In this document: one piece after another, positions 1,092-25,128 of the stretch
Layout of the letters: each line of letters opens with the position of its first letter
How positions within the stretch are numbered: position 1 is the stretch's first letter
DNA from: a virus
Lineage: Duplodnaviria > Caudoviricetes
DNA: 27,362 nt
Reading direction: 5' to 3' (one strand)
IMG/VR virus record: IMGVR_UViG_3300021335_001376
Coordinates: 1-27,362 of that record
Made by a program: the position numbers and the translations under genes
Notes under the pieces: generated by a model
Database searches by the model: none
What the model was told of the DNA's origin: nothing
Seen by the model: the letters and a program-made list of their open reading frames with translations, nothing else

Positions 1092-1411
1092 TAACCTTGC
1101 CTATACACAATATGCACACCCCAAGGTGTAATAACAGGCGGACCAATATCGTCAACTGGTATTACCTTTACAGCCTCTGAAAAATCAGGATGCATTTTTT
1201 CTTCATTAAACCAACCTAGCTCGCCACCGTGTCTTGGTCCACTTGCACATGCACTGTGTTTTGCCGCCGCTTCAGTAAAACTAATTTTACTACTTTTAAT
1301 ATCTTTTATTAATTGTTCAGCATCAGCAACAGCAACACCTAAAGGTCTATCGTGACTACTGTTTGGTGATTTATCAAAACTTAGTAATATATGTTTACAT
1401 TTTAATTTCAT
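1091..1411 (-). CDS. Parvulin-type peptidyl-prolyl cis-trans isomerase (PpiC/rotamase)
   Basis: HILL, SF.EAA.KHSAC.S...GGELGWF, M.P.FSEAV, TPWGVHIV. Confidence 0.9.
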   Translation of the reverse strand: MKLKCKHILLSFDKSPNSSHDRPLGVAVADAEQLIKDIKSSKISFTEAAAKHSACASGPRHGGELGWFNEEKMHPDFSEAVKVIPVDDIGPPVITPWGVHIVYRQG

Positions 1412-2109
1412 TTAATCTCCTGCTCGTCAAACCCTTCCCAATATTCGTTTTCTTTTAAATATTCTGGGGTGTACATATCTTCTTTGTCGTGCCACTTAGG
1501 ATTGAAGTAACCAACACTAGCATAATAGCCTTTGCCTGTTGTGTCGTTGTAGTCAAAGTCTGCTTCAAGTTCTACTTTATCATACCAAACGTTTTCGACA
1601 ATTTCAGACACACTAGTTTCAACTGAACTAAATGCTAGTTTCTTAGGATCAAAGTCTTCGCCTTCGGTTTCAACAAACCATGAACCAAAGCCACCTTTCT
1701 CTCCGCTATGAAAACAAAGAACTGGAATTAATCCTTCTTCGTCTTTGTCTTGATGATATGCTTCTCGACCATACAAGTGATACGGTTCAAATCTAAGTTC
1801 ATTTTCATCCCACCCGTAGTCATCACTACCATCTGCAGGTACTTCGTTAACAACCCATTCACCGTCAGCATAAGAGTTATTAAGATGTTCTAGTTCATCA
1901 CAGTCATGCCATGCATTAAAATCTTCTGCAATCTTAGGTGCATCTTTGTCACCCATGTCTTCATCGTCCCATTCATAACTAGTTACAGTTTCAATAAGGT
2001 CCGATTCGTCTTTGTCAATAAAGTAATCTACAAACTCTTTACTAACTTGTCCAATGGTAAGTTCTCCACCATAGTTACTTGCCTGAATTCTAAATCTACG
2101 CTTTGTCAT
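1408..2109 (-). CDS. Hypothetical, very acidic protein
   Basis: 233-aa ORF translationally coupled to neighbours; about 60 D/E versus about 20 K/R by hand count. Confidence 0.75.
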   Translation of the reverse strand: MTKRRFRIQASNYGGELTIGQVSKEFVDYFIDKDESDLIETVTSYEWDDEDMGDKDAPKIAEDFNAWHDCDELEHLNNSYADGEWVVNEVPADGSDDYGWDENELRFEPYHLYGREAYHQDKDEEGLIPVLCFHSGEKGGFGSWFVETEGEDFDPKKLAFSSVETSVSEIVENVWYDKVELEADFDYNDTTGKGYYASVGYFNPKWHDKEDMYTPEYLKENEYWEGFDEQEIK

Positions 2110-2112
2110 CTA

Positions 2113-2454
2113 TTAATCTCCTGCTCCGGGTTTTTCAGAAAAATATTTCATCTTGTCTTTTACGTTAGCCCATTCTTCTGCATCAGCTGGCACTTCTGAT
2201 TCGTCTTTTGATGTAATATTAGGCCAAGTGTTTGACCATTTATGATTAAGTTCATAAAATACATTATTAGGATCTTGATGATCTGTAATAATAGCATCTA
2301 CTGGACATTCAGGCTCACACACTCCGCAGTCAATACATTCGTCTGGATTAATTACAAGCATGTTTTCACCTTCATAAAAACAATCTACAGGACATACTTC
2401 TACGCAATCCATGTGTTTACATTTAATACAGTTGTCGTTAACTAGGTATGTCAT
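2113..2454 (-). CDS. fdxA: FdxA-type 7Fe ferredoxin
   Basis: [21 protein letters not shown]...[21 protein letters not shown], plus WPNIT and [10 protein letters not shown]-terminal extension. Confidence 0.93.
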
Positions 2455-2861
2455 AGCTCTCCTTTATCTCGCATTTCTGCACGTATCTTTGTAGCACTAA
2501 TATTATGTATCTCTTTCCCTAGGTCATGTTCTGTAAAAGTGTAACCTACACCTCTACCATAACTAATGTCTACAATATTAGGAACTTTCATAATAGTATA
2601 TTCTTCGTTATATGTATAACCTGCTTTTTCTAAGCCTGCAACAATACCCTCTACTACATCTACATGCGTAAAAGGATTGTCTGTTTGTGCTACAGTTCTT
2701 CCAGCACCAGCATCGTCGCCTACTATACCAAACACATCACGTACTTGAATACATACTTGTCCTGTTTCTGCTAATGCACGTTTAAATAATTCTGTATGTC
2801 CATCATGCCACGGTTGCCATCTGCCTAGCATTTGTGTTGTAGGTTTTTGCCAATCAAACAT
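2451..2861 (-). CDS. HIGH-superfamily nucleotidyltransferase (cytidylyltransferase/NMNAT-like)
   Basis: [10 protein letters not shown] (HxGH) and ISATKIR motifs. Confidence 0.8.
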
Positions 2862-3279
2862 TTTGTTTCTCCATGTAGTTCATAACTACTTCTGAAAGTT
2901 GTTGATGTGTATCAGTAAACCACTCTTTTACATGATAGTCAAAGACTGTAGGTGTTTGAAACATTTTGTTAGTATCTTCAAACCGTCCTTCTTCAATAGT
3001 ATCCATCCAAACAGTATAGTCCGGAGAAAATTCTGTACGTGCTTGCTCAGTGGGGCACACAAAGTCGGCAACTGCAATTTTGCCAGCCATGACTACTCCA
3101 TCAGCTAAGTGACGCATACGTTGTGCTTGTCTAATACGTCCTTCAGGTGTAAAGTCCCAATCATCATATTGTGTACGTACTGCATCTGCATTAATATGTA
3201 CTGCGCCAATCAATTCTGCGAAAGGCTTTGCAAGTGTAGTTTTCCCACTACCGGGTAGTCCAAATATTAAAATCTTCAT
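2854..3279 (-). CDS. P-loop kinase, adenylylsulfate-kinase-like
   Basis: GLPGSGKTT, NADAVR...DFTPEGRIRQ, ADFVCP. Confidence 0.75.
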   Translation of the reverse strand: MKILIFGLPGSGKTTLAKPFAELIGAVHINADAVRTQYDDWDFTPEGRIRQAQRMRHLADGVVMAGKIAVADFVCPTEQARTEFSPDYTVWMDTIEEGRFEDTNKMFQTPTVFDYHVKEWFTDTHQQLSEVVMNYMEKQNV

Positions 3280-4194
3280 TTATAATCTCGCTAATCTAAT
3301 TAAGGTTGCGGCCAAGTTAATCTCCGGATCAGAAACTAATGTATGATCCACAAGTCCTTGCTTAATAATTAGGATTGCACTTTCTTGCTTTTCTTCATCA
3401 CCAAACAGATCAATGTTGTCATACAACCATTTGTATATATCTTCGATCTCTTCTGGCCTTGCTTGCGAACAGACTAGTTTACGTGCTTGTCCTATCTTGC
3501 CTGCTTTAAACAATTCAACCATTTCAATCTTATAATCAGCATCACCTGAGTCTGCTTTAGATGGCGGTACTAATGCACCGTCAACACAATTCATTTGCAC
3601 CATGTTAATACATTTACGCAAATCAGGATACGTTGCTTTTACATAAGTGTCTAGGATATCCAAGTCTGGAGTAACACCTTCTGTAAGAACAATTTCTGCA
3701 ACTCGTGCAGTAAATTCTGTTTGGTCAATACGTTCAATATGAAAGCCTTGACACCTGCTGTGTAGTGCAGGAATAATTCTGTTTGGATAGTTACAAGTAA
3801 GAATAAAACGTGCAGTAGTATGATACTCTTCCATCACACCACGTAATGCCGCTTGTGCGTTCGGCGACAAGTAATCAGCCTCATCTAGCAGTACAACCTT
3901 AAATGCACCAAATGGAATCATTTGTACAAAGTTTACAATCTTATCACGTACATCTTCTACTGAGTTTGTTCTACTAGCATTAATTTCTAACACATCAAGA
4001 TCGTTAATCTCTAGTTGATTAAGAAGAATCTTTGCAAGTGTTGTTTTACCAATACCTGCGTTACCACTAAACAACAAATGCGGAATAGTTTTATCTGTAA
4101 TCCATTGCTTTACTTGTTGTTTTTGTGCATCATCTCTAAATACATATCCGTCAACTGTATTAGGACGATATTTTTCTACCCATAATTCTTTCAT
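3280..4194 (-). CDS. Sliding-clamp loader AAA+ subunit (RFC small subunit/T4 gp44-like)
   Basis: LWVEKYRP, GNAGIGKTT, EINAS, LDEAD, SRC, DLRKCIN. Confidence 0.95.
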   Translation of the reverse strand: MKELWVEKYRPNTVDGYVFRDDAQKQQVKQWITDKTIPHLLFSGNAGIGKTTLAKILLNQLEINDLDVLEINASRTNSVEDVRDKIVNFVQMIPFGAFKVVLLDEADYLSPNAQAALRGVMEEYHTTARFILTCNYPNRIIPALHSRCQGFHIERIDQTEFTARVAEIVLTEGVTPDLDILDTYVKATYPDLRKCINMVQMNCVDGALVPPSKADSGDADYKIEMVELFKAGKIGQARKLVCSQARPEEIEDIYKWLYDNIDLFGDEEKQESAILIIKQGLVDHTLVSDPEINLAATLIRLARL

Positions 4195-4730
4195 TTAGTA
4201 ACTCCGAAATGTTTGTATGTTTGTTGTAAGCATTTTGCTTGATAGTAACAATCTGCTAGAGCATTGTGTAGTTGTTCTTGTATTGCTTTACGTGGATCAC
4301 TTGGCATCATTGCAAACACCGTTCTGCTATCTCTAATTTGCCAGTAGTTCCACGGACAAGGCTTGCCAATGTTTTTGTATAAGTTTTGTAGAATTGCATA
4401 ATCAAATAACGGACCTTGACACCATAGATAATCAACTCCAACACACCATTTGTTGAGTTGTTTTGTTAAGCTATCCATATTTACACGATCGTGATCACCA
4501 AAGGCTTCGTCTTGAATTTCTTGCTTTTGTCTACTCCACCATGCTAACGTATTATCGTCAATACTACGATTATATTTTTCAGACTGTTCTTCTATGTCAC
4601 AACGCAAATATAAACCATGATTGGGTTCAGCATCACTAAACGGATCAAACTTAACTGCACCTAGAGTGATTATAACACTATCAGGTTCAACCCCAAGTGT
4701 TTCTAAATCAATCATTCCGTGTATTGCCAT
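4191..4730 (-). CDS. DEDDh 3'-5' exonuclease (DexA-like)
   Basis: MIDLETLG, G..FDYAIL, RDSRT, HNALADC. Confidence 0.88.
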   Translation of the reverse strand: MAIHGMIDLETLGVEPDSVIITLGAVKFDPFSDAEPNHGLYLRCDIEEQSEKYNRSIDDNTLAWWSRQKQEIQDEAFGDHDRVNMDSLTKQLNKWCVGVDYLWCQGPLFDYAILQNLYKNIGKPCPWNYWQIRDSRTVFAMMPSDPRKAIQEQLHNALADCYYQAKCLQQTYKHFGVTK

Positions 4731-4895
4731 TTAACCCTTCCTATTTTCTTGACCCATTGCACTCATTATTAACGTGACATATAAAATAGGCCAAGCCCAT
4801 CCTGTAATGTAACCTGTAGTATGCAATACCATAAGTGTAACTCCTGCTACACCAGTAGTACCTATTCCGCTAGTTTGTGGCTTAGGAAATTTCAT
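4731..4895 (-). CDS. Small membrane protein, 54 aa (not in ORF track)
   Basis: MKFPKPQTSGIGTTGVAGVTLMVLHTTGYITGWAWPILYVTLIMSAMGQENRKG; AAGGAG SD upstream; stop abuts next ATG; two hydrophobic segments. Confidence 0.8.
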   Translation of the reverse strand: MKFPKPQTSGIGTTGVAGVTLMVLHTTGYITGWAWPILYVTLIMSAMGQENRKG

Positions 4896-4925
4896 ATATA
4901 ACTCCTTATTGGTTTATTATATATG

Positions 4926-4954
4926 ATTATATACGATTACATACGATTTGTCAA
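4926..4954 (-). promoter_or_regulatory. Consensus sigma70 promoter (early/middle)
   Basis: TTGACA (4954-4949), 17-nt spacer, TATAAT (4931-4926), upstream of the replication/metabolic gene string. Confidence 0.9.
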
Positions 4955-5526
4955 CCGTTTTTGGTAAGAATAATATTAAAGATATCTTCCCAGGTATCTG
5001 CTCTTTCAATACCTTTATGTTCGAAATCTTTATTATACGGGTGGGTAATTAAGATTGGGTTGTGTCCTGCTTCTAATCCTGCGATAGCATTTTGTGGTTT
5101 ATCTTCAATCCACCAATGCCCTGGTTCCCATTGTTTTAAGTGTTCGTCTTTGTCAGCGCCTGTTGCAATACAAGTACAATCTGTAATTACTTCGTCACCA
5201 AATACTTGTTTAAGATTATATCTGCGAATGTCTCCAGCACACTTATCTTCGCTTTGACTAGTAAGACATTCAAAAGTATATCCTTCAATACCAAAACGTT
5301 CAATCCATTCTACTGCTCCAGGCATGGGATCTAAATATCCCATCCATGCACTTTCATTAAATCTATTTGTAAGTTGATCTGATAATTCTTGATCAATTCC
5401 AAATCTTTTAGATTGCTTGTACACACCTTCTGTTTGTACTTCATAGCCTTTGGAATTCATCCATGCAGTAAATGCTGGCTCCCACTGTAATAGGACACCG
5501 TCTACGTCAGTTAATATAGGTAACAA
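4951..5526 (-). CDS. HAD-family 5'(3')-deoxyribonucleotidase-like phosphatase
   Basis: LTDVDGVL, LTS, K, WIEDKPQN, PYN. Likely start is TTG at 5526 just after the MazG stop; the track start at 5577 overlaps MazG. Confidence 0.82.
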   Translation of the reverse strand: MLPILTDVDGVLLQWEPAFTAWMNSKGYEVQTEGVYKQSKRFGIDQELSDQLTNRFNESAWMGYLDPMPGAVEWIERFGIEGYTFECLTSQSEDKCAGDIRRYNLKQVFGDEVITDCTCIATGADKDEHLKQWEPGHWWIEDKPQNAIAGLEAGHNPILITHPYNKDFEHKGIERADTWEDIFNIILTKNG

Positions 5527-5527
5527 T

Positions 5528-5944
5528 TTAAAGGTCGCCTTCTTTTCTATTCTCGCTATAGTGAACATCAAACTCACCGCCTGGGTAGCGTGACTTTAGT
5601 TTATTCACGTTTTCTTCTACGACTTCATTTGGGTCCAAACCAAGAGCCCTACAGCTAGTAATCCAGTACCACATAATATCGCCAAGTTCTCGTTTGCAAT
5701 GAAATACAGTTTCATCGTCCATAGGTTTACCTTGGAAGATACATTTTTTAACAATTTCAGCAAATTCGCCTCCTTCACTTGATAGTCCAATAGCACCTGT
5801 CATTAATGATGCCATGTTTAGTTTTCCACCACTTGTTGCTTCAATATCAATCATACGATTGTACATCTGCATACTAGATAATGATTCGTTACTTGTTACT
5901 TCTTTTACAAAGTCTTTATATCTATTTAAATCTACGTTATTCAA
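5528..5944 (-). CDS. mazG: MazG-like NTP pyrophosphohydrolase
   Basis: GLSSEGGEFAEIVKK, RELGDIMWY, NVNKLKSRYP. Confidence 0.9.
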   Translation of the reverse strand: MNNVDLNRYKDFVKEVTSNESLSSMQMYNRMIDIEATSGGKLNMASLMTGAIGLSSEGGEFAEIVKKCIFQGKPMDDETVFHCKRELGDIMWYWITSCRALGLDPNEVVEENVNKLKSRYPGGEFDVHYSENRKEGDL

Positions 5945-6131
5945 TTTCTTCGTCTCTTTCTTTGAGTTCGTGTTTGATTTCGTCTTCCGCTTGCATTATT
6001 TTATAACGCATTTGGACGTCTTCAGTGATGTGATAGACTGCGTCTAACTTTCTTAATTTTGCCTTTAATCCATTAGTGGACAAAGTCTTCAGGTCTAGCT
6101 TTATCGGAGTGGAAGTCAATTTCTTCTCCAA
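5937..6131 (-). CDS. Small hypothetical coiled-coil protein (start uncertain; TTG at 6083 or 6131)
   Basis: Fills the gap between GroES and MazG; 5' end overlaps GroES. Confidence 0.5.
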   Translation of the reverse strand: MEKKLTSTPIKLDLKTLSTNGLKAKLRKLDAVYHITEDVQMRYKIMQAEDEIKHELKERDEEIE

Positions 6132-6510
6132 TTCTTAAATCATTATCAGGTGCTTGATCATTCCAACCAATTACACTTTCAGCTTCAACCATTCTAATTG
6201 TAATTGGTTCGCCTGCTAATGTAATTTCAAGTCCTCTAGTCCAACGACCGTGTTCAACTAGGATCCAATCACCTACTTCGTATGGATCTTTGTTGTCTGG
6301 ACCTTTTGAATGTACTTGCCCCCAACGTGGGTAGATACCTCTAGTTTCACCATCATCACTTCGGATAATAATACCACCTTTAGTAGTCTGTTCACCGAAG
6401 TGCATGTTGTGTACTAATACTCTATTTTTGATAGGGCGGATTGTATCAGCAGTAATTGTGCCTTGCACACCTTTCTTGCCTGCCGCCATTGCTTCATAAT
6501 CCATAGCCAT
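6073..6510 (-). CDS. groES: GroES-like co-chaperonin
   Basis: IRPIKNRVLV, mobile loop EQTTKGGIII, G.V...GP, VGDWIL. Confidence 0.85.
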   Translation of the reverse strand: MAMDYEAMAAGKKGVQGTITADTIRPIKNRVLVHNMHFGEQTTKGGIIIRSDDGETRGIYPRWGQVHSKGPDNKDPYEVGDWILVEHGRWTRGLEITLAGEPITIRMVEAESVIGWNDQAPDNDLRIGEEIDFHSDKARPEDFVH

Positions 6511-6513
6511 TAA

Positions 6514-6909
6514 CTATTCACCTCTTTTTACAAAGTTTCCGTCAGCGTCTTCAACCCAATCATCAGCTTCTTCTTTTGCTTCAGCTTTTGTTTGGCCTGC
6601 TTTCGGTTTAGTAGAACGTGGCTTAGGTGCTTCAACTTCTGTTGCTTCAGCTACCGGCTCTTCTACTACAGGTGCTCTTTCAGATGCTTCGAACTGTGTA
6701 GGCTCAACATTATCTTCATAGTAATCACGTAAAACTTCTTCACGCTTTTTAATAATCTTTCCACCTGGACCTAGTTCATCGCCTCTAGCATTTACACGAA
6801 CATTGCCCACTGCTGGTGTTAGTTCGTTTCTTTGTCTTAGCAAATCCATATCAACAGGTTTACCCTGCATTGATCTGTATTGCTTACGACCTGTTTGCTT
6901 TACTGCCAT
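6514..6909 (-). CDS. Hypothetical phage protein with acidic low-complexity tail
   Basis: Start reassigned to ATG 6909 (MAVKQ) using the AGGAGA SD at 6915-6920; core is AVGNVRVNARGDELGPGGKII. Confidence 0.75.
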   Translation of the reverse strand: MAVKQTGRKQYRSMQGKPVDMDLLRQRNELTPAVGNVRVNARGDELGPGGKIIKKREEVLRDYYEDNVEPTQFEASERAPVVEEPVAEATEVEAPKPRSTKPKAGQTKAEAKEEADDWVEDADGNFVKRGE

Positions 6910-6932
6910 TTTAGTCTCCTTCGTTATATTAG

Positions 6933-6940
6933 TACTTATC
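6933..6940 (-). promoter_or_regulatory. Putative late promoter variant GATAAGTA
   Basis: One mismatch to the ATAAATA motif, at a similar distance upstream of an SD and ATG. Confidence 0.5.
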
Positions 6941-7499
6941 TCAAGAACTCTCTCCAATCCAGTTCAAACTGGATTGAATCAATCTTATGTACACCAATTA
7001 AATATAGCACATAACTTGCTACACTTGATCCTCTACCTACACCCCATACAATGTTATTCTCACGCATAAAGTCTACAAGATATATCATATACTGTAATAG
7101 TGGATACATACCACGATCAAAATATTCTGTAAGTTCTTCAGTTACTCTGATCCATTCATATGTATGTGTATCACGTAAAGTAATAGGATCATCTATTTGA
7201 TATTTCTCCATTAACTTTGCTTCAAGCCATTTGTTAGGATTAATTTCTTTATACTTCTGAGGCATAAACCAATCGCTTTGGCATACACCGTCAAATGTTT
7301 TTTCGTCTACATCTAGTGGAATATATTTTTGCAATGGAGACATACCTTGTTCTTCCATTACTGTATTAAATTTGTCTATATCATCATTGGCGTCACAGAG
7401 AACTACATGACACTTGTCGATATTACCACTATAGATCATATCAACTAGATCACGATTTGTAAATCTCGGGATTCCTAGCTTGTCTGTTTTCATTAGCAT
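6936..7499 (-). CDS. DNA polymerase III alpha (DnaE)-like N-terminal palm fragment; split polymerase
   Basis: RVTEEL, IVWGVGRGSSVASYVLYLIGVHKIDS...LDWREFLR matches DnaE GPGRGS...LLFERFL; ends before the catalytic PDxDxD. Confidence 0.85.
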   Translation of the reverse strand: MLMKTDKLGIPRFTNRDLVDMIYSGNIDKCHVVLCDANDDIDKFNTVMEEQGMSPLQKYIPLDVDEKTFDGVCQSDWFMPQKYKEINPNKWLEAKLMEKYQIDDPITLRDTHTYEWIRVTEELTEYFDRGMYPLLQYMIYLVDFMRENNIVWGVGRGSSVASYVLYLIGVHKIDSIQFELDWREFLR

Positions 7500-7505
7500 A
7501 CACTT

Positions 7506-7534
7506 ATTTTAACTGATATTAATCAGTTTGTCAA
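7506..7534 (-). promoter_or_regulatory. Sigma70 promoter with palindromic spacer
   Basis: TTGACA (7534-7529), 17 nt, TAAAAT (7511-7506); ATG follows 6 nt later; AACTGAT-N4-ATCAGTT at 7511-7528. Confidence 0.8.
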
Positions 7535-7751
7535 GATCTAAATCGCCATTTTGTTGATTTTTTTCTCGTTCTAGCTTTTCTTTTGCTTCTTTTATTAGTG
7601 CTTCTTGCTTATAGTACTCAATAAATGTACTAATCTGCTCTTTTACCTGAGGATTATTAGCTTGGAAATACTTCTTAGTTAGATCTGCTACTTTGTCGTA
7701 TAGCTGGGCAACGGTCATTTCAGAAGTATCTTCTTGAAACGGATGAAGCAT
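7509..7751 (-). CDS. Hypothetical helical protein
   Basis: 80-aa ORF directly following the 201-aa gene. Confidence 0.75.
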   Translation of the reverse strand: MLHPFQEDTSEMTVAQLYDKVADLTKKYFQANNPQVKEQISTFIEYYKQEALIKEAKEKLEREKNQQNGDLDLDKLINIS

Positions 7752-7752
7752 T

Positions 7753-8358
7753 TTACTGATAAATGCCTAAATATTCTGCCCAAACAGTTGTACCACTATC
7801 ATAACTTACAAATTCAAAAGCATAATACTTAGTAGGTTCTCCAACAGCTGGAGCACCAATTACTGCTGTAAGATCACTTGTTGGCCAGTTGCTATTTGTT
7901 TTAATAGTTCCTCCACCTGCATTACTTGCAAATGTAATAGTTCTATTAGTTGAACTACCTGCTGTTTGATCACTTTTAATATGTAAACGTACTTTACCTG
8001 TTCTTGCTACTGTGCTTGACCAATTAGATAAAGTAAGTGTAATGTCTGCACCTACTGTAAATTCTTGGTACGCACCATTGTCAAGGTTAATGTTTTGACT
8101 AGTGTTAACAGTAGCACCAGCAACGTATCCTGTTTCTGTAGTGTTCTGAAAGTTTACATTGTTGATAGTATTTCCTAAGAAATTGTTATCTGCATTCTTT
8201 ACTGCACCGTTTGTTTGTAGTGCTTCAATCTCTGCTTTTGCCGCCGCAAAGTTTGACACTGTTGTTGCGAAATTATCACGAAATCCCTGCGAGTCATTGT
8301 CTTGTCCCGCTATAGGAAAATCAGCACTAATTCCTGTATCACTAATATTACTTGCCAT
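7753..8358 (-). CDS. Putative virion structural (tail/baseplate-associated) protein
   Basis: FPIAGQDNDSQGFRDNF, short coiled coil, beta-rich C-terminus; late motif and SD upstream. Confidence 0.6.
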   Translation of the reverse strand: MASNISDTGISADFPIAGQDNDSQGFRDNFATTVSNFAAAKAEIEALQTNGAVKNADNNFLGNTINNVNFQNTTETGYVAGATVNTSQNINLDNGAYQEFTVGADITLTLSNWSSTVARTGKVRLHIKSDQTAGSSTNRTITFASNAGGGTIKTNSNWPTSDLTAVIGAPAVGEPTKYYAFEFVSYDSGTTVWAEYLGIYQ

Positions 8359-8379
8359 AGTTTATCCTCTCGTTGCTAT

Positions 8380-8387
8380 TATTTATC
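8380..8387 (-). promoter_or_regulatory. T4-like late promoter GATAAATA
   Basis: Intergenic, upstream of AGAGGA SD; resembles TATAAATA. Confidence 0.7.
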
Positions 8388-8391
8388 AGCA

Positions 8392-11355: not shown

Positions 11356-11364
11356 TCAACACTC

Positions 11365-12054: not shown

Positions 12055-12071
12055 GTAAGTCTCCTATACTA

Positions 12072-12079
12072 TATTTATC
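12072..12079 (-). promoter_or_regulatory. T4-like late promoter GATAAATA overlapping the subtilase stop codon
   Basis: Motif followed by AGGAG SD and ATG 12054. Confidence 0.7.
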
Positions 12080-14579: not shown

Positions 14580-14591
14580 TATAGTGTCCCC

Positions 14592-16622: not shown

Positions 16623-16632
16623 ATCTTTATCC

Positions 16633-17088
16633 TTATAACGCCGCTATTCTTGTTTGGAAGTCGGCAAAGTCGGCACTTGCCGCCACTTCTGTTTTTAATG
16701 TTGCTAATGTAATAGTTTCCGCTTGTAATGCAGTTGCCGCTAATGCACCTTGTGCAGAAGTTGCCGCATCAGTAATTCCGTAACCAGCTAGTGTAGTTGG
16801 CTTACTTGTAAGTGAGGCAAACGTCTGTGCTGGAATAGTTAAGTTTGTAAGATTACTTCCGTTCAATGCCGGTAGTGTACCAACTAACACTGCCGCTGTA
16901 ATTGTTCCGTTAACAGCATCAACTAGTAATGTACTATCGTCAGCAAATACAGATCCGTTAATATCTCTGTTTTTATTTGTTACATCTAATTCAGCAAAGT
17001 TTTCGTTAATCTTTTTAAACGCTGTTCTTAATGGATCACCATCACCTTTGTTTGCACTAGTTCCAATATTAATTACTTGAATAGCCAT
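16633..17088 (-). CDS. Short fibre/adaptor protein with gp9/gp10-like N-terminal module
   Basis: INIGTSANKGDGDPLRTAFKKINENFAEL; TTLAGYGITD. Confidence 0.7.
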   Translation of the reverse strand: MAIQVINIGTSANKGDGDPLRTAFKKINENFAELDVTNKNRDINGSVFADDSTLLVDAVNGTITAAVLVGTLPALNGSNLTNLTIPAQTFASLTSKPTTLAGYGITDAATSAQGALAATALQAETITLATLKTEVAASADFADFQTRIAAL

Positions 17089-20000
17089 TATACTCTCCCT
17101 ACCACAACTTCAACGAACCCTGGTTCATCTCCGTCTTTGGTTCCAACTGCTTTACCAATAACAGTTCCTACTGTAGGATCGTTCTGCACCATACCGTAAC
17201 CTGGAATTGCACTAGATACAATTATATCACCTTTCTCAACAGCACCAATTACTTTACAAGGTACTCTACCCTGTAGTGCTAATGCTGTAACATAATCTCC
17301 GTGTAAATCACTATTCATTAAGTGTGCTGGGTTAGTTGAAACAACACCAGCAACTTTTCTATCTGCTTTATGCATAGTAGTTGTTATTTCTTGTTCACCA
17401 CCAAATACTAAAACAGTGCCTGCTTCATACTCTGCATCAGCTAAGTAATTCTCAGCCAAGTCAGCGTATTGTGCCGCTGTGGCAGTTCCGTGGAATGTAC
17501 CGAATTTTAATGCACTTGTACCTATATCGTATCCACCGTTAGTACTTGGAGTCATAGCCGCTTGTTTAAATACTACTGCCGCTGTATTATTATTAGCAAC
17601 AATAGCAACTTCACCTGCACTACTAAATCCTGTACCTGCTCCAATACCAATACCTGTACTTGAACTAGTCTTTTCTCCTGGCGCTTCAATAAATGAAGTG
17701 TACATCCAGTCTGACGCAACTCTTGGAGAGTTTTGTGTAGCATCACTTGGATCACCATAGCTACTGTTCTGTTGGAAGAACGAAGCTGATGCACTTGTAT
17801 TACCTACTTGTATTGTACCTGGGAATGTTGTAGTTGTGTTACTTGGAACTGTACCAACTGTACTAAGCACTGTAGCACCACCTGGTGTTTTCATTGTCAT
17901 AGTTAAGTTAGTTTGATCTAAGATATCATAATTGTCTAATTTAAATTTCTGTGCATCAATACTTCCATCTGCACCTGTTTTAACAATTCTATCAGCAACA
18001 CCTGTTGTAGTAAACGAACCACCAGTGTTAACAATATCTGCAAAACTAATTGCACTTGCATCACCTGTACCTGAGGCACTTCTAGCAAATACTGTGTTTT
18101 GTGCTATATCTGGTAAGTCAGCAAAGTCAACAGCACTTGCGGCTAGTGTTACCCAACCATCTGTTACTGTAAAGTCATCAGCATCAAATGCCGCAAGTCC
18201 TAGATCTGATTGTGCTATACCTGTTGCGTTAGCTCTTGTAGTTGCGGCCTGCATAGCAAGTTTACTTTGTAGTATTCCTGCTGTTGGACTTACATCACCG
18301 TTAACAATTACTTCTGAACTAATTGCCGCTGTTGCAACATTACTTCCATTACTTGTAAACACAACATCACCTGTAACAGTATGATTATCATAAAGTCCTC
18401 CATGGAACATTAGAATGTCATTGTTTGCTCTGTTACCAATGTCAGTACCAATTGCTTCTGTATCAAATGGTGTTCTAGCATCCACATATGATTTTGTGGT
18501 TACATCTTGTGGATTAGTCGGATCACTGTGATTGTAGATCTTATTACTACCAGCATTGATATTTCCTGTTATTGGAGTAGTACCATCTCTAGCAATAGCT
18601 CCCGGGCCAATAGTACCAGTTGTAATAATTACACCGTCTCTATCAAAGTGTAATCTTTTCTCTATAAATTTCTCTGTAGCAAATTCTGTAGGTACTGCCG
18701 CCGGATCACCATCAGCCATTGTGTCGTCATTACTGAATTCTTGAATTCTAACACCTTGTCTAAATCCTAATCCGTCTAAGTTACTGATAGCAATTGAAGC
18801 CGCAAATGTAACTGTACCTGTTCCTTGGTCTACACTAAAGAACTTACCAACACGGAAGAAACCATCTTGGTCTGTACTTGCAAAGAACACTCTACCTTTG
18901 CCTCTTTCGTTAACTTCAGCATCTTGGTTAGCACTAATAGTTGGCTGTCCGTAAATAATACTTGGATAGTTAGTAGTGTTAAATCCACCAGTACCAATTT
19001 TATCAAAGTCATGTCCGTTAGCTCTTAGTGTTGAAATACCAACTGTAATTGTACCAGGTTCACCGTCTTGTAATGATAACGGAATAGTTCTTGTTGCCGC
19101 AGGACTAAATCTTAAATCTGCTCCAATTCCTGAACCAGTATATAGTCCATTATTACTGTTAATGTTCGAAGCCGCTAGTTCATTAAGTTCAATTGTAGCA
19201 TAATCACCTCTGTCTGTATAGTTTGCAACAATATGTGTTTTACCAGCATGAGTAAAGATCATATCATTGTTACTAATACGTGCAATCTGTGGTGCTGTTA
19301 ATTTTTCAATAGCAACTACAACGTCACCTACTGTTGCACCCATTGTTGAACCTACACCAGCATATGTATTTTGATTTGCTTCTGTATTTCTAAGTGTTAA
19401 GTTTAAGTGGCTAAATGGTGAATCCATAACAACTTGGAATCTATCTGATGCTAATGCTGTGCCATCTGCATCTTGGTTGTTGAAACTAATACTTCTGTAA
19501 ACTTGATTTGGATTCTCTGTAAAGATTACCGCAGTAGATGGTCTTGTTGCTGTAACACCAGTTAAGTCATCTAACAAGTGGTTTTTGTTCATTCTTAGAA
19601 CAGCGTATGCACTTGTGTCATTTGATGGCGTAGGATTGTGTGCACCTGTGATTGCTGTTTCTAATCCAGTATCTCCTGACACACTTAATCTATAGATAGG
19701 TAAGTTAGCACCTTTACGTCCTGTCGGACCTGTTGCACCTGTGTATCCACCTATGTTACTTGTTGGTACTGCAACAATACTTGTTGCTGTAACTTCGTAT
19801 GTAGTTACACCTGTAGTTGTATAAATGTCGATCAAACTGTTTGGATAAGGCATGTAATCACAGTCATAAACAAATATACTAAATGATCCAGCCGCGTGTG
19901 CAAATGTACCAAACCCATATACGTTTGTTTCATCATTGAACACCTTACCAGGCTGTTGCATATTTCTTAGTGTTGTGATTTGGTCAACAGTTTCGTTTGG

Positions 20001-23000
20001 ATCTGATCCTGCCGCAACTAAACCAAAGTTACCATTTGCGTTAGAACAGTTAAGAGCTCTAATCTCTGAACCGTTGTTACTAAAGAATGCTGTATGGTTA
20101 TAGTAAGTAAATGTTGAAACTTGCTCTGACAGTGCCGCGTTGTTACAGAACAATCCGTAACCTAAATCGTTAACCTGAGTATAGTCGTTTGCCAACATAC
20201 TTCTGTTACCAGCTGTTTGAATATAAATTGCTTGAGGGAATGATGTATCAGTATACCCATTACCTTCATTTGAAAGTTTGTTAATTAATAATTTTGCTGT
20301 ACCTGTTCCGCCATCGTAATCTGAAACAGCATCAACTTGATAACGTACACCATTAATAAAGAATGGAGCAGGTGTTTGTGGTTTTCTAATTCTTAAACCT
20401 GTACCTGCATCTGATTGTACATTAAGTGTATAGTTGTCGTCTTTGCTTGTAATCTTAGTTTCTAAGTTACCTGCAAATCCGTCAATGTACATACCACCTC
20501 TAAAGGCTTGTTTGTTTACACTTCCTGAGAACGATCCACAAACCTGTGTGTATGGTGATTTAACTAGAACTTGTCCTGCTGGATCAAGTACCTGTGCAAA
20601 TCCACCGTGTCCTTGGAATGACATGTTTGCTAATCTTGTAGCATCGTTCATTAAGAACACATCCATTTGATTATTCAGTTTAGGTGTACTTGTTGGATCA
20701 GCTGGGTCAGTTAAGTAATGGTAACCGTAGTTACGTGTTTGTTTAACATGCCAAGCACCGCTTGCAATACCACTTAGGTTTGGAAGTACGTCTGTTGTTA
20801 GTGTAACGTCAAAACTACTTCCGCCATCAGCATTACTAATAAGTCCAACAGCACCATTGTCTGTGTAGAACCAAGCACCATCCCATGCAATAGGAGCAAT
20901 GTTGTCTGCTGGAGTAACTGTGATAACACCGCCAGCTTCGTTAGTACCTGTCATAGTAATTGCTTGTGGTGTTGCTAAGTCTGCACCTGTATAGTCTGTA
21001 ATTTTTAAATTGTCTAGTAACTTGTCTCTATAGAAATAAGTGTTTGCCCAAGGTGATTGTGAAATTCTTGGAGCAGGTCTAATTTGACAACGTCTAAAGT
21101 CAGAACCTTTAATAGATACGTTAGCAGGAACTTTCAACGGATAGTCTTCGTAGTAAATACCTGTTTCAACGTGTACAGTAATTTGTTTCTCTTTAGTTCC
21201 GTTACCGTATTCTAGTTCTTCACCAATTCTAAAATCTCTTGGCTCAACTAGTACAACTTCACATCTATCATATGCTGTGCCGCCTAAGTCTACACCACTT
21301 GTGTATTTTACAATACGTCCTCTAGCGCCTGATGTCTTACCAACAATAATTTTACCTGGGAGGATATCAACGTTAGTATTAACACCTTGGTCAGTACTAT
21401 CATTACCAGTACCATTGCCAAAGTCAATTGTGTATGTACTTCCTTCAACTAGTGTGTAATTATTTCTAGCGGCGAATCCATTTTCTAAAATGTCAAGTAT
21501 AATATCAAATTTAGCATTTAGAGCATCTTTAACTTGTGTTGATACATCGTTAATAGAAGAGTCAAACCATTGTGGAATAAGTGTTGTATAATCTGTAGGA
21601 TACAGTTTAGTACCTTCGTAGCCTGTACATTCAAATGTAATACTATCAAGTACAACAATATCACCTGCACCTAAACCGTGTCCTGTGGTCGTTGTAATTA
21701 TACCTTTACCTGTAACATTGTCGTAATTAAAACCACTAATGTTAAATGTGTTACCACCAAATGTCACAGTACCACCACTTACGTATGTGTGTACAACAGT
21801 TGATGTACCTACAGCTACTTGGAATGTATTTGTTGTTAAGTTATCTGATTCAACAGCAAATCTTTTACTTTGTGTTAGTAAGTCAATATTTTGTACTACA
21901 CTATTAACAATAGCTTTAGCTTTTGTCATAGCCGCTCTAGTTTCTTGTCCTTGACTAATACGTGCTCTAGCACCTGAACTTGTACTAAAGTAGCGTGTAG
22001 CCGCTTGTATAGCGTTGTAGTTACTGTTTGTACCGTTACCAATATCAATAATCATTCCATCAATAATAAGGCCAACGTCACGTTCACATGTGTTGTCTAC
22101 TACAGGTGGTTGCTCTGGTGCTACTAATGAATTAAGTCCATTAGTTATAACATTTGTAATTACACTTGTTAATGTGCTTGCTCTATTTGCAACATCATTA
22201 ACACCTGTTCCACTTTCACATGCAAGTGATGTAATAACCTGTGGTAAACTTTCTGGGTATACTTTTGCTACTGTAGATCCTTCAAATGTACAAGTAACAT
22301 TAATGCCTGCAAGTGTCACAACATTAGTTGCACTTAATCCGTGATTACCAACAGTTGTAATACTAGCAATACCTGTTGCTTCGTTATAAGCAAATGTGCT
22401 TACCGGTAATACTGTGGCATCTGATTTAGTTACTGTACCGCCGTTTACATATACGTTTGCATAACTACTGCGTCCAATATAAAATTGGAAACTGTTTGCT
22501 GTTAAATTTTGATCATCAACAACAAATGTACCTTGCTTACTTGAATACGCTGTATTAGATAATACGTTGTTTACAACAAGATCTCTTGCAAATTCAATTG
22601 CCGCGTTTGTTTGTGCAATCTGATCAGCAGTACCTAAACCTGCAACACCTACAGCATTTTGCATGCCTGCTAGATAACTTGCGGCCATTCTGCGTGTTTC
22701 AATGTTTCCGCCTCTTGATAAATCATTAATCCATGCATCAACAATATAACCTACATCACGTTTACATTTTGCACTACTGTAATCAAAGTTATTCCATATA
22801 CCAGCACCTCCGGCGTTTCCAACATTGTGATTAATCCAGTATGTTACTTCTTCTTGGATAAACTTTTTGTTTTGTGCTAGAATTGCTTCTGCGTTTGGAT
22901 TTTGTACACTTGTTGAATTATAAGAAAGATTTGGAAATGTATCGTTTACATAATCAAGTACTGCTTTTTGAATAAATCTTTTGTTTTCTCTTAGGTAAGT

Positions 23001-24290
23001 TTGTGCATGGTAGGCCGCAGTGTTTTGTGTTGTTGGTCCTACACCTGTAACAAGCGAAATATTCTTACCATTATTATATGTAATTGTTTGTCTATAAGCA
23101 CCTGGTTCAATAGGAGCACTTTCAATAACTTCTTCCGCTTTCATTAGAGCGGCTTTTAAACTACCATATGCGTATCCTAGTCCCCGTCCTTCAAGTCCTA
23201 CCGGAGTACGTGCTTGTGTGTCGTCACCTTGTTTAGTTACAAATATATCTTCTGTTGAACTGTAACTATTGTTGTCAACATATAATTTTGTTGCGGCTTG
23301 TTTGTCTTTTATATCACCAGTGTCTATTCCTGCTAAGTCACCTGGATGATCATGCAAGTATAATGCACCTGTCATGTCATCACCTTGACGTCTTACAGTT
23401 GCACTTCTAGGTAAAGTTTCGTCTGTTTTGTAGAAGCCGTAATATGCATCATCGTACGCTGTATCTCTAACAATGTCTGTACCTGTTACTGATGTTTGTG
23501 TACCTAGTGCAATATTAATTTTAACACGAGTAGTATCGTTATTGTTTTGTGCTTCTGCTTTAGTAGAGTGTAAACTTAGTTGATCTTCACTTACCCATCT
23601 TACATAATAATCTGTAGAATTTGTTAATCCGTTTGGCGCTGAACCTGTTGTTGAATATTTCCATTTAGTTCCGTTAATACTCCAATCAAACCCATGATTG
23701 TTAATTACAACATTACCTGCTCTATATTCTGCAATAGTTTTAGTGTACTCACTTGCGTTTGCAGGTTCTGATCTAGCATATACAGGTTTTGTTGGTTCAA
23801 AGGTTGTGTTTGGTGCGTAGTATTGATCTTGGAATTTTTTATCTGTTACAATATCATTAATTGTAATTGCACTACCATGTGTAGTATTAAATTCTGCAAT
23901 AGCTTCTGGTGATGTAGCAATTTTACCAATAGCATAAACTTGGTTACCACTTACAGGTCCACCAAATATTGGACTTGTGTCAGCGTTAATGTTAGCACCA
24001 GTGTTAGTAATAGTAATATTACTTGCACTTGAATTGTCAATACTAATACCTGTTCCTGCTGAAAGCGTTTTAGCTAGGATTTCAGTACCAGTTGTATTAC
24101 CAATTAATACGCCACCTGGTGTAATTCCTGTTGGTGTATCGTTAAGTGCGGTAAAACTAATTGTTCCACCTTGTCCAAACACAGCATATAGTTCTGTGAA
24201 GTTCTCGTTTGCTTTACGGAACGCTTCACGTATACTATCACCTGTACCGTCGTTACCCTCAACACCTAAATAAATATCTTGTTTTGCCAT
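17088..24290 (-). CDS. Giant tail fibre/spike: gp10-like N-terminus, pectin-lyase-like beta-helix, C-terminal autocleaving chaperone (peptidase G2-like)
   Basis: GNDGTGDSIREAFRKANENFTELY; VETGIYYEDYPLKVPANVSIKG; ADLAENY...VAGVVSTNP...LQGRVPCKV..KGD.IVSS. Confidence 0.82.
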   Translation of the reverse strand: MAKQDIYLGVEGNDGTGDSIREAFRKANENFTELYAVFGQGGTISFTALNDTPTGITPGGVLIGNTTGTEILAKTLSAGTGISIDNSSASNITITNTGANINADTSPIFGGPVSGNQVYAIGKIATSPEAIAEFNTTHGSAITINDIVTDKKFQDQYYAPNTTFEPTKPVYARSEPANASEYTKTIAEYRAGNVVINNHGFDWSINGTKWKYSTTGSAPNGLTNSTDYYVRWVSEDQLSLHSTKAEAQNNNDTTRVKINIALGTQTSVTGTDIVRDTAYDDAYYGFYKTDETLPRSATVRRQGDDMTGALYLHDHPGDLAGIDTGDIKDKQAATKLYVDNNSYSSTEDIFVTKQGDDTQARTPVGLEGRGLGYAYGSLKAALMKAEEVIESAPIEPGAYRQTITYNNGKNISLVTGVGPTTQNTAAYHAQTYLRENKRFIQKAVLDYVNDTFPNLSYNSTSVQNPNAEAILAQNKKFIQEEVTYWINHNVGNAGGAGIWNNFDYSSAKCKRDVGYIVDAWINDLSRGGNIETRRMAASYLAGMQNAVGVAGLGTADQIAQTNAAIEFARDLVVNNVLSNTAYSSKQGTFVVDDQNLTANSFQFYIGRSSYANVYVNGGTVTKSDATVLPVSTFAYNEATGIASITTVGNHGLSATNVVTLAGINVTCTFEGSTVAKVYPESLPQVITSLACESGTGVNDVANRASTLTSVITNVITNGLNSLVAPEQPPVVDNTCERDVGLIIDGMIIDIGNGTNSNYNAIQAATRYFSTSSGARARISQGQETRAAMTKAKAIVNSVVQNIDLLTQSKRFAVESDNLTTNTFQVAVGTSTVVHTYVSGGTVTFGGNTFNISGFNYDNVTGKGIITTTTGHGLGAGDIVVLDSITFECTGYEGTKLYPTDYTTLIPQWFDSSINDVSTQVKDALNAKFDIILDILENGFAARNNYTLVEGSTYTIDFGNGTGNDSTDQGVNTNVDILPGKIIVGKTSGARGRIVKYTSGVDLGGTAYDRCEVVLVEPRDFRIGEELEYGNGTKEKQITVHVETGIYYEDYPLKVPANVSIKGSDFRRCQIRPAPRISQSPWANTYFYRDKLLDNLKITDYTGADLATPQAITMTGTNEAGGVITVTPADNIAPIAWDGAWFYTDNGAVGLISNADGGSSFDVTLTTDVLPNLSGIASGAWHVKQTRNYGYHYLTDPADPTSTPKLNNQMDVFLMNDATRLANMSFQGHGGFAQVLDPAGQVLVKSPYTQVCGSFSGSVNKQAFRGGMYIDGFAGNLETKITSKDDNYTLNVQSDAGTGLRIRKPQTPAPFFINGVRYQVDAVSDYDGGTGTAKLLINKLSNEGNGYTDTSFPQAIYIQTAGNRSMLANDYTQVNDLGYGLFCNNAALSEQVSTFTYYNHTAFFSNNGSEIRALNCSNANGNFGLVAAGSDPNETVDQITTLRNMQQPGKVFNDETNVYGFGTFAHAAGSFSIFVYDCDYMPYPNSLIDIYTTTGVTTYEVTATSIVAVPTSNIGGYTGATGPTGRKGANLPIYRLSVSGDTGLETAITGAHNPTPSNDTSAYAVLRMNKNHLLDDLTGVTATRPSTAVIFTENPNQVYRSISFNNQDADGTALASDRFQVVMDSPFSHLNLTLRNTEANQNTYAGVGSTMGATVGDVVVAIEKLTAPQIARISNNDMIFTHAGKTHIVANYTDRGDYATIELNELAASNINSNNGLYTGSGIGADLRFSPAATRTIPLSLQDGEPGTITVGISTLRANGHDFDKIGTGGFNTTNYPSIIYGQPTISANQDAEVNERGKGRVFFASTDQDGFFRVGKFFSVDQGTGTVTFAASIAISNLDGLGFRQGVRIQEFSNDDTMADGDPAAVPTEFATEKFIEKRLHFDRDGVIITTGTIGPGAIARDGTTPITGNINAGSNKIYNHSDPTNPQDVTTKSYVDARTPFDTEAIGTDIGNRANNDILMFHGGLYDNHTVTGDVVFTSNGSNVATAAISSEVIVNGDVSPTAGILQSKLAMQAATTRANATGIAQSDLGLAAFDADDFTVTDGWVTLAASAVDFADLPDIAQNTVFARSASGTGDASAISFADIVNTGGSFTTTGVADRIVKTGADGSIDAQKFKLDNYDILDQTNLTMTMKTPGGATVLSTVGTVPSNTTTTFPGTIQVGNTSASASFFQQNSSYGDPSDATQNSPRVASDWMYTSFIEAPGEKTSSSTGIGIGAGTGFSSAGEVAIVANNNTAAVVFKQAAMTPSTNGGYDIGTSALKFGTFHGTATAAQYADLAENYLADAEYEAGTVLVFGGEQEITTTMHKADRKVAGVVSTNPAHLMNSDLHGDYVTALALQGRVPCKVIGAVEKGDIIVSSAIPGYGMVQNDPTVGTVIGKAVGTKDGDEPGFVEVVVGRV

Positions 24291-24293
24291 TTT

Positions 24294-24617
24294 TTAAAAT
24301 CCTACGCTTTCACCACAACCACAGCTACTTGTGCTTGCAGGGTTTTTAATATCAAAGTATGAACCGAATAGTTCTTTTTTATAATCAATAGTTGAGCCTA
24401 GTAAGTACATGATACTAGTACTGTCTATAATAAACTTACCATTTAGTAGGTCTATAACTTCATCGCCTTCTTCTACTTCATCTGCCATTACCCAATCGTA
24501 CTTGAATCCTGCACATCCACCACCTTGCATTTGTAGTTTAATTGCTGTTTTGTCGTTATCTTTGAGTAAGTTAGTCATCTGTTCCTTAGCCGAATCTGTT
24601 AAAAATACCACGCTCAT
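24294..24617 (-). CDS. iscA: A-type Fe-S carrier (IscA/HesB/ErpA family)
   Basis: LTDSA, GGGCAGFKY, L.GSTIDY, NP....CGCGES. Confidence 0.92.
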   Translation of the reverse strand: MSVVFLTDSAKEQMTNLLKDNDKTAIKLQMQGGGCAGFKYDWVMADEVEEGDEVIDLLNGKFIIDSTSIMYLLGSTIDYKKELFGSYFDIKNPASTSSCGCGESVGF

Positions 24618-24633
24618 TTACTGTCTCCTATTG

Positions 24634-24641
24634 TATTTATG
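24634..24641 (-). promoter_or_regulatory. T4-like late promoter CATAAATA
   Basis: Upstream of AGGAGA SD and iscA ATG. Confidence 0.7.
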
Positions 24642-24664
24642 TAATCTTTTATAATCCGAATGTA

Positions 24665-24672
24665 AATAAATA
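24665..24672 (+). promoter_or_regulatory. T4-like late promoter AATAAATA (divergent)
   Basis: Ends 5 nt before ATG 24678; no SD visible. Confidence 0.6.
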
Positions 24673-24677
24673 CAGTT

Positions 24678-24965
24678 ATGTTCAAAAGAATTGAAAAAGA
24701 AGTACGTTTTTACGTTCGCAAGAGCAAGACCGGAAAGAGTCATACATACAAACGTATACGTAGTTATGCTCTATTCCAATGTGATGAATGCCACAATGAC
24801 TTTAAAAGAGAAAAGGGCAAAGTAGACCCGAAGCGTTTAGATAACTTCTATGTCCACGTTTGCCCAGATTGTGATCCTAAGCGTTTTGCTCAACGTAAAG
24901 GTGTTGAACAGCGTAAGATATTAAACTTACCTGCAGGATCTGATATAAGGATTGACGAGATTTAG
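24678..24965 (+). CDS. Basic Zn-ribbon protein
   Basis: CDEC...CPDC; K/R-rich; the only credible plus-strand gene. Confidence 0.8.
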   Translation: MFKRIEKEVRFYVRKSKTGKSHTYKRIRSYALFQCDECHNDFKREKGKVDPKRLDNFYVHVCPDCDPKRFAQRKGVEQRKILNLPAGSDIRIDEI

Positions 24966-25126
24966 TCTTCTTTTTTCCAAATAGTCCATGCACCATATGC
25001 AATAGCCGCATATGCCGCTAGTTTAGCAAATGGTCCTGCAATAAGAACAATAATTCCTAATGCAATAAGAGCCGCTCCATCAATCGATGTACGCTCTTCC
25101 ATTCTTGCTTTGATCCAATTTTTCAT
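24962..25126 (-). CDS. Small two-TM membrane protein, 54 aa, holin-like architecture (not in ORF track)
   Basis: MKNWIKARMEERTSIDGAALIALGIIVLIAGPFAKLAAYAAIAYGAWTIWKKED; AGGAGG SD. Confidence 0.8.
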   Translation of the reverse strand: MKNWIKARMEERTSIDGAALIALGIIVLIAGPFAKLAAYAAIAYGAWTIWKKED

Positions 25127-25128
25127 AA

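Follow-up and report, generated by a model that had tools for sequence, protein, structure and literature searches.

The virus record IMGVR_UViG_3300021335_001376 (IMG/VR), analysed here over its whole length of 27,362 nucleotides (1..27362, 37% GC; called the window below), is, to judge from its genes, a fragment of a jumbo phage related to PA5oct, and we found that it contains no copy of the word GCWGC on either strand. The explanation which we consider probable is that this lineage avoids the sites of host Type II restriction enzymes, and that this avoidance complements a predicted shield of 7-deazaguanine bases at G before a purine. Ten other palindromes (GCGC, CTGCAG and CAATTG among them) have 0 unshielded copies in the window, being kept only where a G inside the site or just 5′ of it is followed by A or G. 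GCWGC has no internal G-purine step; both of its Gs precede C on both strands, so the shield would leave it uncovered and it could be protected by removal only. The missing GCWGC is by itself an unusually clean but ordinary case of site avoidance. The survivors of the other sites single out the G of GA or GG, and this pattern is tied to an unannotated gene with a tRNA-guanine transglycosylase (TGT) fold that is shared with a cultured phage.

GCAGC and GCTGC were each found 0 times in the window, where 100 dinucleotide shuffles gave an expectation of 31.3 ± 5.0 GCWGC and 1000 synonymous-codon shuffles one of 38.5–40.4, with 28 in the lowest shuffle (38.4 was expected in a further codon-shuffle run). 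GCWGC was the most depleted 5-mer in the window both by a Markov test and by the codon-shuffle test; the 12 one-mismatch neighbours that were counted had 21–84 copies each, and GCSGC was raised to 48 copies vs 9–11 expected from codon shuffles. A sequence-only reading of this DNA had noticed the absence of GCWGC by eye, and the count of 0 vs 38–40 against codon-shuffled controls confirms it. Depletion of ACGGC in the window was a side effect of the GCGGC excess, and a supposed purge of GGATG was dropped, since the codon-shuffle tests did not rank this word, low as it was in many loci, with the strongly depleted ones.

At Ala-Ala junctions the first codon was GCG or GCC in 44 of 44 cases (27 open reading frames, ORFs), as compared to 49 of 622 alanines before other residues (Fisher: P = 5e−43); the share of GCG/GCC among the non-junction alanines of the window was 8%. 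A hydrophobic ORF of 54 amino acids (24962..25126, minus strand) adds three junctions, all GCS (25005, 25014 and 25071), giving GCG or GCC first in 47 of 47 Ala-Ala junctions. The sequence-only reading had put the number at about 45, all of this kind, and its examples, which all lie on the minus strand, were located at 1267/1270, 8244/8247, 12647, 12671, 25005 and 25014; GCG/GCC was not equally common outside Ala-Ala pairs. The examples include Ala-Ala-Ala written as GCG GCG GCA at 1263..1270 in a PpiC-type isomerase gene (1091–1411) and at 8240..8247 in a gene for 201 amino acids (7753–8358), and two junctions written as GCC GCA within 12643..12671 in the subtilase gene (12075–14579). A tail-fibre-like gene of 2400 amino acids (17088..24290, minus strand) holds 22 recoded Ala-Ala junctions. 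Ala-Ala pairs numbered 41 vs 50 expected in the window, which is not significant alone.

The relatives of the window were compared by its clamp loader gene (3280..4194, minus strand), which served as the lineage marker. The nearest cultured phages by this marker are PA5oct, MIJ3 and Paride (55% identity), then Phosso and Atu_ph07 (46%); 80 IMG/VR loci have 83–99% identity and approximately 830 IMG/VR stretches match. We surveyed these 80 clamp-loader loci and 80 loci found via another gene, some of which are near-duplicates, and read 16 contigs, including the window, in full and piecewise; all of the contigs are incomplete. Each strand was tested for the base 5′ of a site (flank test) and for the base after its terminal G (terminal test). 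GCWGC was 0 in 56 of the 80 clamp-loader loci and in 60 of the 80 other-gene loci, and no copy without a 5′ G (unflanked) was found in 65 and 63, respectively. It was also 0 in 8 of the 16 contigs (the window, G001, G004, G006, G019, G034, G036 and G037; 829 kb together). Only G-flanked copies were kept in G002, G003 and G033, and G009 keeps 12; depletion was partial in G017 (unflanked 72 vs 171) and G012, and G011 and G035 were near expectation. The 335 kb contig G033 had 0 unflanked copies vs 318 expected and 33 G-flanked copies vs 108, with all 35 sites in the contig flanked.

In the two frames which do not give Ala-Ala, the eight zero contigs hold 0 copies of GCWGC vs 80.6 expected. As these off-frame copies are gone too, selection acts on the DNA and a codon-pair effect is ruled out. 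On a clamp-loader tree made by a quick method (73 rows) the window is one of 37 rows in a subtree of purgers, and GCWGC is also purged by three deep rows (72–80% clamp loader identity). Purgers and non-purgers are mixed in one subtree, with 10 changes on the quick tree, of which the starred branches force only 1. The long-term selection against the site that the sequence-only reading had proposed is supported by the off-frame loss and by the presence of the trait on deep branches. The purge carries a cost at the protein level of approximately 20–30% fewer Ala-Ala pairs: the ratio of observed to expected pairs was 0.66–0.83 across 11 contigs that purge (1458 vs 1874 summed) and 1.00–1.06 in two non-purgers.

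GCWGC is not the sole avoided word, as had first been supposed, but one of at least 11, the others being masked by surviving shielded copies. The words that the sequence-only reading took as unavoided controls do occur; however, two of them fail as such controls, as 7 of 7 GCGC lie in GGCGC/GCGCC and 6 of 6 CTGCAG are YCTGCAGG. The seven GCGC sites (3203, 5156, 9167, 14494, 17681, 21325 and 23636, spanning 3203..23639) are each preceded by G on one strand, and unflanked GCGC was 0 vs 9.8 expected. The six CTGCAG sites (1833, 10959, 13331, 24931, 25547 and 26464, spanning 1833..26469) have a purine after the terminal G on both strands, and the seven CAATTG sites (13511..22600) have one on at least one strand. 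In a window-only test of ten words picked from other contigs, some of which overlap, with 500 shuffles and nine control words, we found 0 unshielded copies vs 30.4 expected (14 in the lowest shuffle) and 39 shielded copies vs 60; by the definition used, CGWCG cannot score as unshielded. The control words had 497 copies vs 507.6 expected.

The same survival rule was found across the contigs. Unflanked GCGC was 0 in 11 of 16, and G-flanked GCGC was near expectation in 10 of those 11. In the first 11 contigs the survivors were G-flanked in 46 of 46 GTGCAC and 18 of 19 AAGCTT. Summed over the 16 contigs, CTGCAG with a purine after the terminal G on neither strand numbered 3 vs 157 expected, on one strand 36 vs 348 and on both strands 209 vs 163. 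CGCG, CAATTG, CAGCTG, CTTAAG, CATG, CASTG, CTWAG and CATATG had zero or near-zero unshielded copies in subsets of the contigs, with A and G both rescuing. The flank and terminal tests agree in indicating the first G of GA or GG. AAGCTT, ACGCGT and AGCGCT were near zero in most contigs, G001 and G004 were without AGCT and CTAG, and G011 was low in AATT. The set of purged words differs among relatives, and the many palindromes in differing combinations among close relatives fit changing host Type II systems; GATC is kept by the clade (90 vs 86 expected in the window).

Further lineage-specific purges were seen in single loci: CTAAG was 0 vs 22 expected in L070, with a similar loss of unshielded CTWAG in G034 and G036, CATG was 0 in L244 and L300, and TGCA was strongly down in L228, L298 and L299. 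The 100–150 kb piece of phage NCTB (L458) shows the same survival rule faintly, over too few sites for a judgement (unshielded CTGCAG 0 of 2, CAATTG 1 of 14). The bacterial Dpd motif CxGCxG, as given in the available part of PMC10164549, was tried as an explanation and rejected, since CAGCAG is present 17 times.

The nearest cultured relative follows the same rule. PA5oct has been reported to resist five enzymes, and a modified G at GA and/or GG was inferred (PMC12191111, available part). In its genome the unshielded copies were 0 of 74 for CTGCAG, 1 of 17 for CAGCTG, 0 of 4 for ACGCGT and 0 of 2 for GTGCAC. Two copies of GTGCAC were present where 28 were expected, each of them flanked on both strands; with just two ApaLI sites in 287 kb, the reported resistance to ApaLI says little. 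Of its GCWGC sites 274 are unflanked and 109 G-flanked, of its GCGC sites 166 are unflanked and 171 flanked, and 44 of its CTGCAG sites are shielded on both strands. PA5oct is thus like the clade in the modified G inferred for it and in the survival rule for CTGCAG, CAGCTG, GTGCAC and ACGCGT, and unlike the window in that it keeps GCGC and 383 GCWGC and has a smaller set of purged words. It also has homologues of a whole gene cluster of the clade (gp168, gp167, gp166 and gp162; 36%, 43% and 58% identity for gp168, gp167 and gp166), in which gp168 is the candidate for the modifying enzyme.

This cluster lies near the DNA polymerase gene in G001, G002, G004, G011 and G017 and comprises FolE, a QueE-like radical SAM protein, a protein with the DpdL motif (LxxxHRHxF, in 5 of 5 members of protein cluster c87), a glycosyltransferase-like protein (assignment from Atlas), a gene of 172–182 amino acids and a TGT-fold protein of 480–520 amino acids. 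FolE was found in 5 of 10 contigs (the G017 copy by tblastn), QueE-like in 5 of 10 and QueD, which lies outside the cluster, in 9 of 10; QueC had only partial weak matches outside the cluster (E 6e−7 and E 3e−6) in these incomplete contigs. In the TGT-fold protein DSGGFQ is invariant in 49 sequences. Its structure model (predicted local distance difference test score 74.9) gave Foldseek matches which, among those listed, were all tRNA-guanine transglycosylases (best E 4.7e−7, probability 1.0, template modelling score ~0.4–0.5), and in its Atlas neighbour cluster 17% of members carry PF01702 (score 0.94). The PF01702 profile found nothing in 5 contigs, the gene being recognised only via motif, Atlas and fold, and a sequence search of the PDB found nothing. 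Homologues numbered 7383 among 8000 scored candidates, and tblastn against phage records matched only PA5oct-like phages, Phosso and Vibrio 2.275.O.

We propose that, in GA and GG, the TGT-fold protein would replace the G by a derivative of 7-deazaguanine, which may bear a sugar. Such a base would block most enzymes whose site contains or touches it, and if bulky, perhaps glycosylated, it could protect a site from the flank. Synonymous recoding to the rare GCG and GCC codons has taken GCWGC out of the lineage; the likely reasons are that its hosts commonly carry a Type II enzyme for GCWGC, either TseI-like or a Type IIS enzyme reading GCAGC (the same double-stranded sites), and that the predicted modification would not cover this site. 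A bolder form of this proposal is tentative, in our view somewhat more apt to fail than to hold: that an undescribed, probably sugar-bearing 7-deazaguanine occurs at every GA/GG step in a very large jumbo phage clade including PA5oct and blocks enzymes from just outside their sites, that exactly the uncovered sites are purged, that the motif, enzyme sensitivities and host repertoires can be read from the missing words, and that GCWGC marks a widespread host enzyme.

Several points weigh against avoidance combined with a deazaguanine shield. Neither a host nor a GCWGC enzyme was identified in the ferredoxin, NifU, bin, cultured-phage and host-class comparisons. G-flanked GCWGC is also 0 in 8 contigs (0 vs 7.9 expected in the window), and AGCT is absent whatever its context from G001, G004 and G037, as CTAG is from G001 and G004; G037 has no flanked GCGC, and almost all GAATTC has been lost from G011; these exceptions to the shield may reflect enzymes which the modified base does not block. 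Purged palindromes were 4 of 47 with and 17 of 58 without an internal GA or GG, a modest difference (P = 0.013) among words which are nested. The TGT-fold protein had no match in the Pfam, PHROG, NCBIfam and PADLOC models. The window holds no modification genes, and it is from relatives that we infer the cluster in the window's own genome; G002, whose clamp loader is 92% identical, is the nearest contig to have it, and in G019, a 99% relative, QueD alone was seen. The cluster is also present in non-purgers (G011) and does not explain who purges GCWGC. Finally, the activity of DpdL was not reproduced by its describers, according to the available part of PMC10516641.

GCWGC is a known Type II site by way of TseI, whose specificity is GCWGC (bioRxiv 10.1101/380360, available part). 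Searches for the host gave hints only. The window's FdxA-type ferredoxin (2113..2454, minus strand) had its best cellular matches at 60–71%, nearly all labelled Alphaproteobacteria, in 2 of 64 parts of the collection searched, which is a weak host hint. NifU of G006 had ~47–57% matches, mostly in Caulobacterales, and one short 84% match to an unclassified contig. The host is probably a member of the Proteobacteria and perhaps of the Alphaproteobacteria. ApeKI (GCWGC) and BbvI (GCAGC) are further enzymes of such sites. Bins were rejected as a host clue: the clade occurs in bins of unrelated taxa, G033 having been located in a GTDB bin, and this was read as mis-binning. A parallel with SAR11 and OM43 phages was also rejected, GCWGC numbering 37 vs 45.9 expected in HTVC008M, 55 vs 51 in Melnitz and 58 vs 69.9 in NCTB (50 kb pieces); HTVC008M (SAR11) and Melnitz (OM43) deplete GATC, unlike the clade. 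No GCAGCA-free genome was found among 301 in the class of G039, a low-GC uncultured alphaproteobacterium (0 of 299 without G296 and G096). G039 carries a HaeIII-family restriction enzyme and C5-methyltransferase pair (L459:1489-3358), an indication that such cells can carry Type II systems; its C5-methyltransferase was rejected as the GCWGC enzyme because it adjoins the HaeIII-family enzyme. It is plausible that GCWGC loss could serve as a host fingerprint, although it matched no host in the comparisons made.

The sequence-only reading had offered two causes for the purge, a conserved host system and a phage-encoded nuclease. The lineage-specific sets of palindromes favour the first. The second, in which the phage destroys host DNA at GCWGC and has purged its own genome for protection, the other words being due to host enzymes, is in our judgement unlikely. 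It would account for GCWGC being the most stable purge on the tree (the 37-row subtree and the three deep rows) and for the loss of even G-flanked GCWGC in 8 contigs; many of the conserved genes are without a family match, and most restriction enzymes escape profile libraries. However, 26 protein clusters were shared by 3 or more purgers and absent from every non-purger among these incomplete contigs; none of them was nuclease-like, and the commonest occurred in 8 of 12 purgers; the nucleases recognised (SNase and PD-(D/E)XK exonuclease genes) occur in purgers and non-purgers alike. The mixture of purgers and non-purgers in one subtree, and intermediates such as G017, also argue against it.

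A host system of another type is slightly less probable again: a modification-dependent cutter of GCWGC (BisI family or Type IV), a Type III or BREX-like system, or a harmful host methyltransferase mark. The surviving GCWGC lean to gGCAGC over gGCTGC (33 vs 13, P = 0.02), which hints weakly at a reader that is asymmetric. The listed Type IIM sites include GCWGC (PMC6286503), and GCWGC methyltransferases are known from aquatic bacteria, Chloroflexi both times (bioRxiv 10.1101/380360; PMC8919816; available parts of all three). Against these possibilities, the other purged words are classic palindromes of 4–6 bp. The available part of Rusinov et al. (PMC6286503) reports that Type I, IIG and III sites are little avoided. 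BisI-type enzymes are listed as needing modified cytosines, and the C5-methyltransferase sought in 32 + 4 virus records and in the G033 phage contig was not found in any of them.

That GCG and GCC are preferred in Ala-Ala pairs at the level of translation, or through an effect on RNA, is very improbable. It could draw on the ~94% of the window's expected GCWGC which falls at Ala-Ala junctions (~2.5 are expected in other frames), but it is refuted by the off-frame loss in the eight contigs; in addition, the coding strand of the window is without both GCAGC and GCTGC, G011 and G035 use GCA and GCT freely in Ala-Ala, and whether a site survives depends on the base that flanks it on either strand. 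A library or assembly artefact, such as digestion of the DNA at GCWGC before sequencing (some library protocols use an enzyme with this site), is the least credible of all, as the lost sites are replaced by GCSGC through compensating codons (48 vs 11 expected), which is impossible by digestion, and the same absence is seen in 56 and 60 loci of the two sets of 80, which come from many different records.

Phage methyltransferases were considered as a general reason for the retention of GCWGC and rejected. An N6/N4 gene above the cut-off was found only in G035, G043 and G044 (1 of 5 and 2 of 47 in two sets), which are one non-purging lineage, and not in the non-purgers G011 and G045, whose contigs span the same region. 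In this lineage a DPPY-type N6/N4 methyltransferase, a gene of 350 amino acids and one of 185 amino acids with a PD-(D/E)XK-like pattern are inserted near QueE (L367:2362-4939 in G035), possibly forming a phage-borne restriction-modification module; the purger G037 has a 38% homologue of the 185 amino acid gene. The non-purging contig G011 carries a Dam-like D12 adenine methyltransferase (L176:129-1031) and is strongly depleted in AATT (245 vs 1610).

Among the genes of the window are those for a clamp loader, tail fibre, baseplate connector, GroES-like protein, MazG, ferredoxin, IscA-like protein, UvdE and subtilase. Two overlapping small genes (2451–3279, minus strand), for an HxGH-motif protein and an APS-kinase-like kinase, match halves of phrog_10255. 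The gene at 6936–7499 (minus strand; 187 amino acids) encodes part of a DNA polymerase III alpha domain standing by itself and matches phrog_11127 over nearly the whole profile; the replicative polymerase of the clade is of family B. The lone sizeable plus-strand gene within the minus-strand block (24678–24965) encodes 95 amino acids with two CxxC pairs, for which no family match was found. The habitat of the phage is probably marine, as suggested by the names of records, a Tara-named homologue and genes in common with HTVC008M and Melnitz; two relatives come from bins with freshwater-type names. As for lifestyle, the clade has T4-like portal, capsid, baseplate and clamp loader genes, no integrase was found among the clade proteins scanned, and G006 belongs to the IMG/VR ‘provirus’ class. 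The relation to Wroclawvirus is likely more distant than genus, going by two markers only (clamp loader 55%, TGT-fold protein 36%). The G033 phage contig also carries PEP (phosphoenolpyruvate) carboxykinase, an alternative oxidase, a four-gene phosphate-type ABC transporter and ribose-phosphate pyrophosphokinase (L322:4683-19731). Common to relatives are a ferredoxin-dependent bilin reductase, heme oxygenase, CHASE2 adenylate/guanylate cyclase, CsgF/CsgG, ribosomal protein S21 and IF-1 (L175:4068-4757, L208:8554-9117, L175:13242-15296 and L214:17329-18261).

The survival rule yields site-by-site digest predictions for PA5oct DNA, and it suggests a route by which the modification motifs and host restriction repertoires of uncultured phages could be inferred from sequence. 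Avoidance of restriction sites has long been known in non-temperate phages with double-stranded DNA, mainly for orthodox Type II sites (Rusinov et al. 2018, PMC6286503; available part, as for the other sources below). The avoiding phages of that survey resemble the window in the near-complete loss of short palindromes by synonymous change, and GCWGC is among the sites surveyed. In the survey modification and avoidance appear as alternatives, with hydroxymethylase-bearing coliphages avoiding 2.4% of sites vs 55.8%, whereas the clade appears to combine both and has removed only the copies without a G-purine step. Our literature search, which covered few subscription papers, found no report of such a division between avoidance and modification or of GCWGC loss in this clade.

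Motif-specific 7-deazaguanine is known from the Queuovirinae, with dPreQ0 at GA and GGC in CAjan (PMC7544227) and modification at GA in iggy (PMC10484667). There too a DpdA-type enzyme modifies G before a purine, and sites with only GC or GT steps are still cut. The clade differs in that the motif would be any GA or GG (GGT counts, as GTGCAC survives only after G), in carrying a DpdL-like gene along with a glycosyltransferase but no clear QueC, and in that a G just outside the site seems protective; the available text of the CAjan and iggy reports describes no matching purge of unshielded sites. The Cellulophaga phage phiST has a DpdL/DpdA3 dDG system in which DpdA3 is reported to replace all guanines (PMC10516641), and it shares with the clade FolE, QueD, QueE, a distant TGT homologue and a T-fold protein with LxxxHRHxF. 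Complete replacement of the DpdA3 type is indirectly contradicted in the clade, where sites with G before C or T are purged and their G-purine versions survive, implying that G before C or T is unprotected; the clade's cluster also has the extra glycosyltransferase and the gene of 172–182 amino acids. Motif-specific deazaguanine shields and the DpdL gene set were thus already known, and what is added here is a probable base-precise division of work between such a shield and the avoidance of restriction sites.

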